A DNA stretch of 64,000 nt, taken from assembly GCA_041651055.1 (NCBI GenBank), contig JBAZJW010000001.1, forward strand, positions 177,021 to 241,020, written 5' to 3'. Shown here one piece after another: positions 15,709-20,813 of the stretch; position 1 is the first letter of the stretch, and the number at the start of each line of letters is the position of its first letter. The translations under genes and the position numbers were made by a program. The notes under the pieces were generated by a model, which was given only the letters and a program-made list of their open reading frames with translations, had not been told where the DNA came from and made no database searches. This DNA comes from Minisyncoccota bacterium (GTDB taxonomy: Bacteria; Patescibacteriota; Minisyncoccia; Phycocordibacterales; UBA5272).

Positions 15709-16320
15709 ATGAACATTCCATCTTTCCAAATGACCGGCTACGTTAAGACCGTGCTCGTTGCCCACCAACATGACACACATGTTTCCACCCCATCGGAAAA
15801 GATCAAACTGATCCAGGGGCAGGGTGTGCTGCATGACAACCACTACGGGCCACGTCTCGTAGACATTCGCGATTCGAGCATTCTTCGTTTCGGTCTTCCG
15901 AAAGGTATGGAGTGCTTCAATGCAAGACAGTGGAGCGCGGTCTCCCAGGAGGAGCTTGATGAAATCTCGCAGCTCATATATATCCCGGGCATCAATCATG
16001 GACTTCTGGGTGAAAACCTTGTGATCTCCGGAATTCCGAGGTTTACCCAGCTCCCTTCGGGAACTCAACTATTCTTCAAGGGGCAGAAAGGCGAGCTGCG
16101 CTCAACTGTACTTTGTGTTCATAAAGAAAATAACCCTTGCCATCTGCCCGGCGAGATGATTCAAGCGCAGTTTCCAGGACAAGAGAAACTTGCGGGGGCA
16201 TTCACGAAGCATGCCAAGCGTCGGCGAGGCGTCGTGGGGTTCGTTATTTGTTCCGGCTTTGTGAAGAAGGGAGACACCGTCATCGCTGAAGTTCCGGAAC
16301 AACAACTCTACGAAGGATGA
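15709..16320 (+). CDS. MOSC domain protein (cassette 4)
   Basis: HGLLGENLVISGI block and conserved Cys typical of MOSC (YiiM-like) proteins. Confidence 0.6.
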   Translation: MNIPSFQMTGYVKTVLVAHQHDTHVSTPSEKIKLIQGQGVLHDNHYGPRLVDIRDSSILRFGLPKGMECFNARQWSAVSQEELDEISQLIYIPGINHGLLGENLVISGIPRFTQLPSGTQLFFKGQKGELRSTVLCVHKENNPCHLPGEMIQAQFPGQEKLAGAFTKHAKRRRGVVGFVICSGFVKKGDTVIAEVPEQQLYEG

Positions 16321-16336
16321 TGAGGCATTCGTTGCC

Positions 16337-16385
16337 GCCAAACAAAACCGCCAAGTCAGTTTTGTTTGGCGGTTTTGTTTTTGTT
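16337..16385 (+). terminator. rho-independent terminator
   Basis: 12 bp stem GCCAAACAAAAC/GTTTTGTTTGGC followed by GGTTTTGTTTTTG. Confidence 0.6.
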
Positions 16386-16393
16386 AAAACTAC

Positions 16394-16422
16394 GAGCTGG
16401 GACTGTGGGACGAAGGTGGAAT
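16394..16422 (+). repeat. intergenic motif copy #4
   Basis: GAGCTGGGACTGTGGGACGAAGGTGGAAT. Confidence 0.55.
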
Positions 16423-16473
16423 TAATTTATATAAAAGTGTAGAATAAAATCAATAGCACAAAGGAGAATACAA

Positions 16474-16800
16474 ATGCTTACCGTAACCGAAGTCCCAACC
16501 AAGTCTATCCGGCTATCCGTCCAGATTGAAGATATGGAAATTGGAAGAGCTTGGCTTGTATTGATCAAAAATGACCTCCACTTAAAACCTTACGGCCTTC
16601 TTGAAGATGTGTGGGTTGACTCTAATCACAGAAAGCAAGGTCACGCCACAGCTCTTGTGCAAAAGATCATTGAAATAGCTAAACAAGAAGGCTGTTACAA
16701 GATTATTGCAACAAGTCGTTTCGAACGAGAGAAAGTTCACGACTTATACAAACATCTGGGCTTTATTTCTCACGGATTTGAGTTCAGAATTAATTTGTAA
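16474..16800 (+). CDS. GNAT family N-acetyltransferase (cassette 5)
   Basis: VWVDSNHRKQGHATALVQKIIEIAKQEGCYKI acetyl-CoA binding motif A. Confidence 0.7.
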   Translation: MLTVTEVPTKSIRLSVQIEDMEIGRAWLVLIKNDLHLKPYGLLEDVWVDSNHRKQGHATALVQKIIEIAKQEGCYKIIATSRFEREKVHDLYKHLGFISHGFEFRINL

Positions 16801-16828
16801 AATAAATTCCAGTCAATCAAGAGTTGCA

Positions 16829-16858
16829 GACCCACTTCGGTGGGCTTTTCTTTTTCTA
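16829..16858 (+). terminator. rho-independent terminator
   Basis: CCCAC-TTCG-GTGGG hairpin followed by CTTTTCTTTTTC. Confidence 0.5.
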
Positions 16859-16864
16859 AAAACT

Positions 16865-16894
16865 CAAGCTGGGGCTCTGGGACGACGTTGGAAC
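16865..16894 (+). repeat. intergenic motif copy #5
   Basis: CAAGCTGGGGCTCTGGGACGACGTTGGAAC. Confidence 0.55.
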
Positions 16895-16960
16895 AGAATT
16901 ATTTACTTCGAGTTCTATAAAATAAGTAAGAATTTTCATGTAAAAACGTCATCATATATT

Positions 16961-17512
16961 ATGAAAGTAAAGCACTTGCAACAATCTGGGGAAAAGAGTA
17001 GTGTTAATAGTCTTAATAAAGACTATACTAAAGATATGCTTACTAAGAATCTTCAGCTTCTTAGCTACCTTACAAAGAAGCACCCTCATGCTTCAGTAAC
17101 TGTGTTAATTAAATTATGCTATTTAGTTGATTTAGTTAGTATTAAAAATGGTAGTGAGAAGATTTCAAATTTTACATATATCAGATACTTTTATGGACCT
17201 TTTGACAAAAGTATCTACACAGAATTAGACCAATTACTTGAAAGTGGTGTATTAATAGCAACACCAGAATACAAAGGCGATTCTGAAACAATAATTTATT
17301 CTTTCAACGAAGAAAAGAAACTAGATACTTCCGCTTTAGATAAAAATGAAATAGCTATTCTTGATGAAGTACTAGATTCACTCGATGGGTATGGAGCAAA
17401 GGCACTTACAGATGTTGCCTACAGTACTGCGCCTATGCAAGCACTTAACGCAACTTTAGGTGGTGACGAAAATCTTGGTGTTGAACTTAATCTAAACTTA
17501 GTAAGAGCTTAA
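16961..17512 (+). CDS. Panacea-domain (DUF4065, SocA/PanA-like) protein, candidate antitoxin
   Basis: VTVLIKLCYLVDLVSIKNGSEKISNFTYIRYFYGPFDKSIYTEL matches the KLLYLaD ... yGPv..vY core of the Panacea domain as I remember it; start set at ATG 16961 downstream of GNAT terminator. Confidence 0.45.
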   Translation: MKVKHLQQSGEKSSVNSLNKDYTKDMLTKNLQLLSYLTKKHPHASVTVLIKLCYLVDLVSIKNGSEKISNFTYIRYFYGPFDKSIYTELDQLLESGVLIATPEYKGDSETIIYSFNEEKKLDTSALDKNEIAILDEVLDSLDGYGAKALTDVAYSTAPMQALNATLGGDENLGVELNLNLVRA

Positions 17513-17517
17513 TTTTT

Positions 17518-18030
17518 ATGCCAATGTCTGACGCTGAACATCTAGCTTGTATTAAGCCACGTTCAGCATACATGGACTTCAGGTCATTAGAAGAATCTAC
17601 AGGTGAAGTTAATGCAAAGTATAAATTACTGACAAAAAAATTAGCAGGTGTTTATTTTTTTCACGTTCTTACAAAGAGTGGGATAACTTATCCTCAAGAA
17701 TATCGCATGGAGATACTCAGAAATGATTGGGAATCGCGTGAGCCCCATCCAAGAGGAATGCACCTTGATGAAGATGCTTCGTATTTAGGTTGTCAGCATT
17801 TCCATATGATGAGTGAAAGAGATGTACTCCTTAAAAGGAAAGAATTTCGTAATGGTTTCAATATAAGTGGGCTGTTAAGTCAGACAAAATTTACAGAAGT
17901 TACAGATTTTATAAAAAGAAGTGGAGGTGTCTACTCAAGAAAATCTAATGTAGTGATTCAAGAAGATATAGAGTCTGTTTTTAATAAAGGGGTTATATCG
18001 GATAAAATAAGAAATAAACTCGGGCTTTAA
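17518..18030 (+). CDS. hypothetical protein, candidate toxin partner of the Panacea-domain gene
   Basis: 170 aa ORF starting 6 nt after upstream stop; no recognisable domain. Confidence 0.35.
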   Translation: MPMSDAEHLACIKPRSAYMDFRSLEESTGEVNAKYKLLTKKLAGVYFFHVLTKSGITYPQEYRMEILRNDWESREPHPRGMHLDEDASYLGCQHFHMMSERDVLLKRKEFRNGFNISGLLSQTKFTEVTDFIKRSGGVYSRKSNVVIQEDIESVFNKGVISDKIRNKLGL

Positions 18031-18049
18031 TTATTCTTTTTTGTATAAG

Positions 18050-19711
18050 TTAAGATAATCCATCAATATACTGTATTGGTGTTATACCATAATCCCACAC
18101 AGTTGAACTTCTTGAAGGGTCAACTGCCCCATGAACCGCAACACCAAGAACACCATTGTCTTTATCAACTACTGGTGAACCACTCATTCCTTTGTAAATC
18201 GGTTTATCAATTGTAAATCTCTCAATACTAAGTATTCCTATACCGTTACTTTTTGAACTAATTTTTCCTTCGTAACATTGTGGAGTGTCATTGGTTCTAT
18301 ATCCAGGAAATCCAACAACCGTTATAGCCTCTTTAATTTGAGGAGTTTCAATTGTGCTTTTTTCAAGACTAAAGAATGTTACTGTTGTTGGTGCTAATAT
18401 TTTTAAAACTGCTAAATCAGGAATAGAGCTTTGTTTTACAACCTCAGCTTTGTATACGTCCTTAGTTTCAGAGTTGTAAACTTCAACTATTCCACAAGCA
18501 CCATCTATAACATGATAACAAGTTACAAGCCCAACATCTCTCAACATGAAAGCTGTGCCAGTATATCCGACAGAAGTTTTAATTACCCATATTGCACGTT
18601 TCAATTCATCAATTGCACTAACAGGTAAGTCTACTGAGTGTGGGTCTATTAAACGATTAAGCCTATTTTTAAACTTCCTGTATATTGGATCTTTCCCACT
18701 TCTGATAAATTTTAAGAAAGATATTTTCCCATATAAAACTGGTGTTAGATCTGGTTCATCTTGACGACTGGGATGTAATCTAAAATACACGTTCGAGGCA
18801 TTTACTTTTCCAAATCTTTCCCAAGCATATAATATTGTTCTCAATTCTCTAATGTATTTTCTGGAAACATTACTAAATTCATTAACGGTAAGGCCAGTAA
18901 CTTCTTGTCTCATATAATGTCTCTGTAACCTAACTTTTGACTGATTAATTGAGAAATTATTTTTTTGAATGATTGAAGTTAATTTTTGTCCACATGTAAT
19001 TATTCCGTGTGAACGGGAAACAATATCAAGATTTAGTTCTCTAGAGTTTGTAGAAAAAGTAATGTCATCTGCATATCTTGTATATAAACAATTAGTTTCT
19101 TTTGCTAACTTTTGTAAATCATTATCTAATGTATAGCAAATTAGATTTGATATAACTGGAGAAGTGGGGGCTCCTTGTGGAAGCTTACCCTCATAACAAC
19201 AAATTTGAGCAAGTAAAATTGCAACTTCTCTTGGGAAAGAAAAAGCTGTTGATTGAAATAATCCTATTATACGACCTACATGAATTGATGGGAAGAAGTT
19301 TTCTAAATCAATATTAAAAACAAGATTTTTTCTTGCGTGTAGTCTTGCGTTATCTAAAATATCTTTATCTTTACAAAATCCATAAACAGATGATTTTGGT
19401 TTATAAGCTAAGTATAGAATATATGCCAATTTTTTTTGTAAAATTTTAAGATTAGATATTGGTGCTAAAATCTCTCTTTGTCCACCACTTTTTTTCTTAA
19501 TATAAAATTTTGTATACGGAACTGGTTTATCTGGTCTGTAAAGTAGGTAAATTATTGTAGAGTAGTCAACCTCTAAAAGGTCAGCAACGTCTTGTTTGCT
19601 TTTTAGTGCTCTAAAAATTTTTAGAATATCGTCATCACTTCTTGTTAAGGTTGGTTTCATTTCTGTGTAAAAGAGAGAGTGGAATAATTCTTCCTCCTGC
19701 AAAACAAACAC
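18050..19711 (-). CDS. retron-type reverse transcriptase fused to C-terminal trypsin-like (S1) serine protease
   Basis: RT motifs KKKSGGQREI, NARLH (NAxxH), FNIDLENFFPSI, LPQGAPTSPVISN, YTRYADD, RQEVTGLTVN (VTG); C-terminal GTAFMLRDVGLVTCYHV (His), IPDLAVL (Asp), GMSGSPV (Ser) triad; GTG start. Confidence 0.8.
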   Translation of the reverse strand: MFVLQEEELFHSLFYTEMKPTLTRSDDDILKIFRALKSKQDVADLLEVDYSTIIYLLYRPDKPVPYTKFYIKKKSGGQREILAPISNLKILQKKLAYILYLAYKPKSSVYGFCKDKDILDNARLHARKNLVFNIDLENFFPSIHVGRIIGLFQSTAFSFPREVAILLAQICCYEGKLPQGAPTSPVISNLICYTLDNDLQKLAKETNCLYTRYADDITFSTNSRELNLDIVSRSHGIITCGQKLTSIIQKNNFSINQSKVRLQRHYMRQEVTGLTVNEFSNVSRKYIRELRTILYAWERFGKVNASNVYFRLHPSRQDEPDLTPVLYGKISFLKFIRSGKDPIYRKFKNRLNRLIDPHSVDLPVSAIDELKRAIWVIKTSVGYTGTAFMLRDVGLVTCYHVIDGACGIVEVYNSETKDVYKAEVVKQSSIPDLAVLKILAPTTVTFFSLEKSTIETPQIKEAITVVGFPGYRTNDTPQCYEGKISSKSNGIGILSIERFTIDKPIYKGMSGSPVVDKDNGVLGVAVHGAVDPSRSSTVWDYGITPIQYIDGLS

Positions 19712-19828
19712 ACTTACATAGCAACATTTGCCAAAAACACAAGGGCACGTATCATCTCACCTTAGATACATCGTCGCGTATACACAACGAATAGCAATTT
19801 CCACTCTCTCTTTTAAAAAGAAACTTAC
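19671..19828 (-). ncRNA. candidate retron msr/msd-like non-coding RNA
   Basis: 13 nt perfect inverted repeat AAGAGAGAGTGGA (19801-19813) / TCCACTCTCTCTT (19671-19683, minus-strand sense) bracketing about 117 nt directly upstream of and overlapping the RT start; TATAAT box about 25 nt upstream on the minus strand. Confidence 0.25.
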
Positions 19829-19918
19829 CAGTTGTATTATAAAACAATTACATTATTAATCCTAAAAATGTATTATTTACTCATGTGTATCTGTTTAAGT
19901 GAGTTGTATCTTCTGTTA

Positions 19919-20128
19919 TTATTTTATAATAAATTTTGCACCGGTCTTCTCCATTAAATCTCCTAGTTGCTTACTCGTCTGCCCCAAACTATTAAATAAT
20001 TCTACAATTCGGGAATCTTTTTCTTGAAGTTGTGCTACAAGTTTTCTGTTATCAATAAATAAACCAGCAGTAGCAATACAAGATATTACTAACAACACTG
20101 CTAAAAGTAGAGTGATTTTAGATTTCAT
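19919..20128 (-). CDS. small secreted or membrane-anchored coiled-coil protein
   Basis: 69 aa, N-terminal MKSKITLLLAVLLVISCIATAG signal/lipobox-like segment. Confidence 0.35.
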   Translation of the reverse strand: MKSKITLLLAVLLVISCIATAGLFIDNRKLVAQLQEKDSRIVELFNSLGQTSKQLGDLMEKTGAKFIIK

Positions 20129-20452
20129 ACGTAAGGTTCTATATTAAATTTTTGGTAGCAAAACACCGCCATAGAAATAGGAGAACCTTACGAGTAGACC
20201 CACTCCATGGCGGAGCTTTTATCACAAGGTATTAGGTTTGTTTTGTAAACATAGCATAACAGGGTACAAGGAACCTCTCCCTCAGTAAACTTTTGTCGTC
20301 ACAAAAGTTTCTTCGGGCAACTCTCGTGGTTTCTTTTGCTAAAGAAACATCACTCCGAGTATTCGAGTCCTTGCCGTGAAGGACCCAACGTCCTTCACTT
20401 ACCCCAGCTCACACGACAAAAAAGCGTACTTCGTACTCGATGAAAAGTGTGA

Positions 20453-20523
20453 GCTGGGGTACAAGGACTCGAACCTCGATACTCAGGACCAAAACCTGAT
20501 GTCCTACCATTAGACGATACCCC
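20453..20523 (-). tRNA. tRNA-Gln (anticodon UUG)
   Basis: Cloverleaf folds by hand: 7 bp acceptor stem (U1-A72), U8, D arm GTCT/GGAC, anticodon stem TCAGG/CCTGA with loop TTTTGGT (U33, anticodon TTG), T arm CGAGG-TTCGAGT-CCTTG, discriminator G, no encoded CCA. Confidence 0.75.
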
Positions 20524-20813
20524 AAGATGTAAGTTTTTAGTTGATAGTTATTATTTTTTAGTTAATGCAAAATGAAATTCATTGTGCGGCATGCAATACC
20601 AAAAAAATGACTATCAGTTATTAGCTAGGAGAAATTAAATTCAGAGAATTTCTTACCCCTAACTCCTAACCGTAAACTCCTAACTAACCAAAACACAATA
20701 CCATTTTTGAGAGATTTTTGGAAGAGGGAAGGAAAGATTCTCGGTGAGAGCGCTGTCACAGTAAGCTTTTTGAAATTATACACAGCGTCCACAGAACACC
20801 ACGAAAATTTTGC

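Follow-up and report, generated by a model that had tools for sequence, protein, structure and literature searches.

The stretch of DNA analyzed here (hereafter the window) is 64,000 nucleotides (nt) of a Minisyncoccota bacterium genome and carries on its forward strand two adjacent open reading frames (ORFs), ORF1 at 16961..17512 (183 amino acids, aa) and ORF2 at 17518..18030 (170 aa). We found that ORF1 encodes a standalone Panacea-domain protein, and that its pairing with ORF2 is conserved far beyond chance. Since the pair has the form of a Panacea antitoxin followed by its partner, the genes are called panA and panT here. The core of PanT is predicted to adopt the MazF/PemK fold, and we consider it likely that the locus is a type II toxin-antitoxin (TA) operon of the PanAT class in which this core acts as an RNase.

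The assignment of ORF1 was based on its match to Pfam PF13274 (SocA_Panacea), which covered profile positions 1-107 of 113 and reached 41.3 bits (cut-off 25.7; E = 3.2e-10). An earlier sequence-only reading of this DNA had assigned ORF1 to the Panacea family by its KLxYLxD...YGP core and had named PF13274 as the check; the core is present as KLCYLVD (51-57) and YGPFDKSIY (78-86), and the check was passed. PF13274 was matched by all 28 orthologous upstream proteins, and in the alignment of 28 PanA sequences K51, Y54, D57, G79, P80 and D82 were invariant. A C-terminal tail, AYxTxPMxALxATLGGxExL (about residues 154-183 of the 183-aa ORF), was strongly conserved, and the PanA core was acidic (isoelectric point, pI, 4.7). 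An identical protein from a Candidatus Paceibacterota metagenome-assembled genome (MAG) is labeled by NCBI as "Panacea domain-containing protein". Weaker matches of ORF1 to Panacea-containing PADLOC models (PDC-M19A, DarG, and a type I specificity-subunit fusion) were also obtained.

The same reading had placed the start of ORF1 at 16961 and the gap to ORF2 at 6 nt. The ORF exists as described, with a spacing of 5 nt (TTTTT, 17513-17517), and as judged from alignment the gene probably starts at the second ATG, at 17036 (M26), giving panA the coordinates 17036..17512 (+) and a core of 158 aa. This start was favored because the 28-orthologue alignment opens at M26 of the window protein, and because the relative L005 keeps the upstream 25 codons as DNA despite an in-frame stop; these codons 5' of M26 are kept in the three closest loci. 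The first ATG of panT (17518..18030, +) lines up with the starts of its homologues, while one public gene call begins at 17524.

The 170-aa partner, described earlier as lacking a recognizable domain, was indeed matched by nothing in Pfam, NCBIfam, PADLOC and the PDB sequences; PHROGs gave a single non-significant match. A word-indexed search of 5.8 billion proteins returned only ORF2 itself and three relatives at 63-69% identity. When a profile was searched against 1.84 billion cluster representatives with no word index, 155 were found at E<=1e-3, of which 55 reached E<=1e-10. Almost all were 155-180 aa long and matched across most or all of their length. The PanT family comprises no fewer than 155 clusters at 50% identity; of the 87 members aligned, 86 were without a meaningful Pfam match. 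The family motif reads D20-x-K-S23-x-E25-x-x-T28-G-x-x-K-x-K34-Y-K36-L, F48...T52, W71, K106, N112-G-F114, K124. In the 87-sequence alignment K34 (87/87) and F48 were invariant, D20, S23, E25, T28, K36 (81/87), W71, K106, N112 and F114 were near-invariant, and T52 (Thr in 74/87, plus 3 Ser), K32, K124 and a C-terminal G-L were commonly kept. PanT is a basic protein, with a pI of 8.8 in the window and a family median of 9.0. A cluster of His, Cys and Asp residues in the window protein (H77, H82, D84, C92, H94, H96) was considered as a metal site and rejected, as only the four closest sequences share it.

One family member, P0012 (204 aa), was found to carry the N-terminal 110 residues of PanT followed by an HNH_3/His-Me finger nuclease motif (108-137) and a C-terminal helix-turn-helix (163-201). 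The protein could have arisen by a natural swap of domains or be a chimera produced in assembly, and the fusion hints that the N-terminal MazF-like domain can be used as a swappable nucleic-acid-recognition module.

The structure prediction of PanT proposed by the sequence-only reading was carried out with AlphaFold2. With only the four close sequences the model was unusable (predicted local distance difference test, pLDDT, 39); it was superseded by a model from the 87-sequence alignment, with a pLDDT of 93.8 and a predicted template modeling (TM) score of 0.89. In a fold comparison of this model, several M. tuberculosis MazF proteins were matched, as were ToxN (6.2) and AbiQ (6.0), with MazF proteins scoring above both. 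An independent Foldseek comparison with the PDB agreed, giving MazF proteins for all of the top 50 matches, each with probability 1.00 and a TM-score by target of 0.6-0.73. The MazF-like core corresponds to about residues 12-135, followed by additional helices at 145-156 and 162-167. The core of PanT is thus predicted to be a classical MazF/PemK/CcdB fold, an SH3-like barrel, and not a new fold. The suggestion that the partner might be a novel toxin was therefore correct as to the family, which no sequence library recognizes, and incorrect as to the fold.

In MazF the catalytic residues lie in the β1-β2 loop or at the start of β2 (E24 and R29 in E. coli) and at the end of β3 (T52). E24A and T52D mutants were present among the MazF structures matched by Foldseek. 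The strands predicted for PanT are β1 (16-24), β2 (31-42) and β3 (45-52), and its near-invariant residues cluster in the β1-β2 loop, on β2 and at the end of β3: D20, S23, E25 and T28 occupy the end of β1 and the loop ahead of β2, K32, K34 and K36 alternate on β2, and T52 closes β3. Our hypothesis, drawn from the model, is that these polar residues stand in the same topological places as E24, R29 and T52 of MazF, with Lys replacing the catalytic Arg. The combination of a basic PanT and an acidic PanA core is typical of type II TA pairs, and would fit an RNA-binding, RNA-cleaving toxin that uses Lys for Arg.

We further investigated how the two genes are distributed. Each of the four close metagenomic relatives of PanT had a Panacea gene directly upstream, in surroundings that differed. 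The same was found for the distant members P0083 (22% identity), P0154 (32%) and P0080 (24%), and on the cut contig of P0020 a recognizable PanA C-terminus was still present upstream of PanT, so that 8 of 8 metagenomic relatives (4 close and 4 distant) had a same-strand Panacea gene immediately 5'. A degenerate DNA pattern of the PanT motif was then run on one genome per GTDB species (185,579 species). It matched 25 places, 24 of which were confirmed by hidden Markov model (HMM) as PanT family, and in all 24 a same-strand gene of the PanA clade lay immediately upstream, at a distance of -41 to +11 nt. These genomes span more than eight phylum-level groups. In the reverse direction, starting from PanA, all three relatives at 39-61% identity carried a PanT family gene downstream (P0176, P0172 and P0161; toxin HMM E-values of 1.5e-23, 1e-17 and 1e-50, respectively). 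The geometry of the pair was kept down to about 22% identity across changing genomic contexts. These counts support the two-gene TA operon geometry proposed from the sequence, and the locus, its gap range and reciprocity included, agrees with the operational definition of PanAT given by Kurata et al. 2022.

The hosts of the 24 GTDB loci were mainly members of the Patescibacteria or Candidate Phyla Radiation (CPR), to which 15 were assigned by name: Saccharibacteria (8), Parcubacteria (2), and one each of Nomurabacteria, Doudnabacteria, Peribacteria, an unclassified Patescibacteria-group MAG and Minisyncoccus. Another 8 came from Ignavibacteriota, Thermodesulfobacteriota, Planctomycetota, Omnitrophota, Alphaproteobacteria (3) and Eubacteriales, and one was named only "uncultured bacterium". 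Among the four nearest flanking genes of 30 loci no conserved third gene family was found, apart from RNase J, which recurred in four Saccharibacteria loci that are syntenic. Genes for integrases, recombinases, reverse transcriptases (RTs), a Zeta toxin and restriction-modification occurred sporadically near family loci. Since the flanking genes vary, the pair behaves as a self-contained, mobile module of two genes, independent of the type XI retron that neighbors it in the window.

Decayed copies were found as well. In a Saccharibacteria MAG (L038, 2700-3800) panT was frameshifted and panA intact, and in the complete genome of Minisyncoccus archaeiphilus PMX.108 (NZ_AP038758.1; L021, 6600-7450), the only cultured host in the set, panAT was fully pseudogenized. 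Two loci that appeared to hold a broken PanA beside an intact toxin (L009 and L012) were rejected, both being scaffold N-gaps, and none of the loci examined combined an intact toxin with a PanA that is truly broken. Decay of this kind would be expected of a TA module.

For the toxicity of PanT, its RNase activity and catalytic residues, its neutralization by PanA and its trigger, we infer the following scheme. Free PanT would act as a sequence-specific endoribonuclease on mRNA, rRNA or tRNA, leading to arrest of translation and growth, with catalysis by S23, E25, T28, K34 and K36 of the β1-β2 loop and β2 together with T52 at the end of β3. The acidic PanA would bind PanT and block it directly, and its conserved C-terminal tail may take part. 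The toxin would be released when PanA is lost or triggered, through proteolysis, loss of the element or possibly phage infection. The pair itself would be a mobile module dropped into a low-GC islet beside the type XI retron and a tRNA-Gln gene of a Paceibacterota (Patescibacteria) genome.

Several results weigh against a MazF-like TA operon. At the level of sequence, none of the 87 PanT members matched Pfam PemK_toxin at E<=0.1, the PanT family profile found zero sequences in the PDB, and hhalign of PanT with a small MazF/Kid/ChpBK/EndoA profile gave a probability of 0.2. That profile consisted of five sequences; it recovers the PDB entries of EndoA, MazF and Kid with E-values down to 9e-49. 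The canonical catalytic Arg is not kept as Arg in the PanT family, and the putative catalytic residues were mapped by secondary-structure position only. PanA is moreover more conserved than PanT (38-82% versus 21-69% identity to the window proteins, alignments A7 and A3), which is unusual for a type II pair and the reverse of the usual pattern. Finally, in the published survey of PanAT systems 8 of 25 tested PanT candidates were non-toxic in E. coli (PMC8832971).

The last two points also favor a conserved pair that does not arrest growth. PanT could be a non-toxic MazF-fold protein that binds nucleic acids or serves in regulation, or the pair could be a phage-sensing module in which the Panacea protein is the sensor and the effector acts on invader RNA only. 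Panacea has been proposed as a sensor (PMC10440598), and defense genes were found nearby, namely the retron in the window and, in other loci, an Eco57I-type methylase with HATPase, LmuB_C with Fic, and an AAA_15/21 ATPase. However, the fold, the charge pattern, the tight coupling of the genes and their strict co-inheritance are all as in classical TA systems of type II, and decay of the toxin alone was observed. A direct link to phages was lacking: the DNA pattern gave one match in IMG/VR viral contigs, which was false, and tblastn of phage and plasmid collections found no PanT member. We consider this explanation unlikely.

A second possibility concerns the position of the family among toxins. 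PanT could represent a separate branch of the MazF/CcdB fold, centered on Patescibacteria, that relies on Lys-based chemistry, carries a helical module at its C-terminus, co-evolves with one dedicated Panacea clade and perhaps has a target or role new to MazF-fold toxins. If so, that role might be, for example, Panacea-sensed abortive infection or control between episymbiont and host in ultra-small bacteria. We regard such a branch, like the modular use of the N-terminal domain hinted at by P0012, as rather improbable. It is slightly less probable still that the locus is a PanAT module with a CcdB-like toxin, one that poisons DNA gyrase or another protein by binding and cuts no RNA; the predicted fold class includes CcdB, and the structures closest to the model were those of MazF.

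The neighboring retron raised another explanation, that the pair is an accessory of the type XI RT-protease gene and that the three genes form one defense system. The genes are convergent, 19 nt apart, and share a common low-GC islet, and RVT_1 genes were found near two other family loci. In contrast, RT-Protease XI is classed by PADLOC as a single-gene system, the RT-protease adjoins the pair in the window only (0 of about 30 other family loci), and of the other RTs, one was of the diversity-generating type and accompanied by bAvd, and the second was an unrelated enzyme of 305 aa at a distance of 2.8 kb. A conserved third gene was lacking. This explanation was largely refuted by the lack of co-occurrence, and is very improbable. 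The least probable explanation, that ORF2 is a ToxN/AbiQ/CptN-like type III toxin under an RNA antitoxin with the Panacea gene incidental, was refuted by the lack of tandem direct repeats in 16300-20700, where panA fills the upstream space up to the 5-nt gap, and by the presence of a Panacea gene in every locus examined, with MazF proteins also outscoring ToxN and AbiQ in the fold comparison.

Two conserved non-coding elements were found upstream of panA, and among the four closest loci both were better conserved than the proteins themselves; they are candidate promoter or operator elements. The proximal element (16973..17035, +) lies directly 5' of the probable panA start and was almost invariant in the window, L001, L003 and L005. 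Because the L005 copy contains an in-frame stop, it is better taken as non-coding. It includes a -10-like box, TATACT (17024-17029), which lies 6 nt ahead of the ATG at 17036, and a small palindrome, AGTCTTAATAAAGACT, that overlaps this box. Distant relatives have TATAAT-like boxes 6-9 nt ahead of their panA ATG, and with boxes so near the ATG in relatives too, a short-leader or nearly leaderless panA mRNA is plausible. The distal element, CTCTGGGACGACGTTGGAACAGAATTA (16875..16901, +), occurs as a single copy in the window, where 0 chance matches are expected, and is also present in L003 and L005, upstream of the close relatives there. It begins about 30 nt beyond a terminator-like hairpin (16831-16844) that follows the upstream GNAT gene, and may mark where the module begins on its left side or act as a -35 region. 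Examined as RNA, the upstream elements had no Rfam match and no significant fold (z -0.75 for the proximal one).

Based on the 5-nt gap, panA and panT would be co-transcribed, and panT is probably translationally coupled to panA. Consensus promoter and terminator scans returned about as many sites as in shuffled sequence. As the sole terminator-like site within the pair is on the opposite strand, the scans give no argument against co-transcription.

The gene convergent with the pair (18050..19711, -) was identified as a type XI retron RT-protease (PADLOC, 570 bits), as the sequence-only reading had anticipated in naming a convergent RT-protease gene. Its start is at 19660 in the public gene call (536 aa) versus 19711 in the longest ORF (553 aa). 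Directly upstream of the RT-protease, a 25-nt inverted repeat (19660-19684/19799-19823) is 92% complementary with its arms 114 nt apart. These arms are candidates for the a1/a2 arms of the retron msr-msd non-coding RNA; the repeat region 19660-19823 had no match in Rfam at the gathering threshold. The pair and the RT-protease gene lie in an islet of 29-35% GC, compared with 36-48% GC in the surrounding DNA, and a tRNA-Gln(ttg) gene (20453-20524, -) adjoins its edge. Perfect inverted copies of the 3' part of this tRNA were observed at 20400-20414 and 20362-20373, 40-90 nt downstream of the tRNA, and may be left over from an inverted, incomplete tRNA copy at the islet edge. No integrase was found, nor any direct repeats of the tRNA-Gln end that would bound the islet as att-like sites. 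The description of this region as a small defense island is thus fair for the window, with its retron and low-GC islet by tRNA-Gln, and does not extend to other loci, where the retron is no conserved partner of the pair.

Mobile and defense genes were also observed around other copies of the pair. In L007-L010 a diversity-generating retroelement (bAvd and RT) and tyrosine integrases lie about 1.5-3.5 kb downstream of it, and near the pair in further loci there were the 305-aa RT, Fic with LmuB_C (Lamassu), and an AAA_15/AAA_21 ATPase (L013 7301-8218, L043 3536-5471, L046 622-2421).

The PanT family leaves the understanding of TA systems in general unchanged. It adds to the Panacea network a well-supported family of predicted toxins that had no name before, accompanied by a PanA clade of its own in all 35 relatives whose neighborhood was examined, and if the predicted fold is correct, it shows the commonest toxin fold hidden behind a sequence that no library recognizes and concentrated in Patescibacteria/CPR. 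The mobile-element and defense biology of these bacteria is almost unexplored, and their first cultured member, Minisyncoccus archaeiphilus, has a decayed copy. For annotation, a Panacea gene followed by a protein with D-x-K-S-x-E-x-x-T-G-x-x-K-x-K-Y-K-L can be read as a PanT locus, and the motif supplies candidate catalytic residues.

Among known systems, the toxins of the type III systems ToxIN, AbiQ and CptIN are of similar size to PanT and distantly related in fold. They are neutralized by a repeat-derived RNA, whereas the present locus has no repeat array and an invariant protein partner. SocAB of Caulobacter, the founding Panacea/DUF4065 system, shares PF13274 with PanA through its antitoxin. 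However, the toxin SocB is unrelated and acts by blocking the replication clamp, with SocA serving as a proteolytic adaptor (type VI), a mechanism that nothing here suggests. In MazEF and Kid-Kis (PemIK) the antitoxin is an AbrB/SpoVT-type MazE instead of a Panacea protein, their toxins have no detectable sequence similarity to PanT, and PanT has an extra C-terminal helical extension and catalytic residues that are putative.

The closest likeness was to published PanAT systems. Kurata et al. 2022 (PNAS) defined PanA and PanT, described 88 toxin clusters and found the antitoxin-first order to be the commoner one; the clusters T5 and T6 were recognized as MazF/PemK-like by HHpred only, and T25 by CDD (PMC8832971). 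The PanT proteins of P. moraviensis and B. ruminantium are cryptic MazF-like RNase toxins that inhibit translation and are neutralized by, and co-purify with, PanA (PMC8832971). Ernits et al. 2023 reported that standalone Panacea neutralizes directly and that MazF/PemK is among the commonest toxin folds (PMC10440598). The present locus resembles T5, T6 (which includes the Pseudomonas moraviensis PanT) and T25 (which includes that of Bifidobacterium ruminantium) in having a Panacea antitoxin first, without an N-terminal domain, and a database-cryptic toxin of predicted MazF/PemK fold within a few nt, in a mobile chromosomal module. It differs in that the published clusters are detectable (HHpred probability of about 99.5%, or CDD), whereas profile comparison showed no similarity of the present PanT to MazF. 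The present toxin also exceeds theirs in length by about 50-60 residues, carries two additional helices at its C-terminus, and has Lys where Arg-Pro is otherwise conserved. It occurs mainly in Patescibacteria, a group barely sampled by the RefSeq-based survey of 2022. The family was set apart from T5, T6 and T25 by their published descriptions, and may equal one of the 88 published clusters. Together, a PanA with a cryptic MazF-like toxin is a known kind of system, from which the present PanT family is divergent in sequence.
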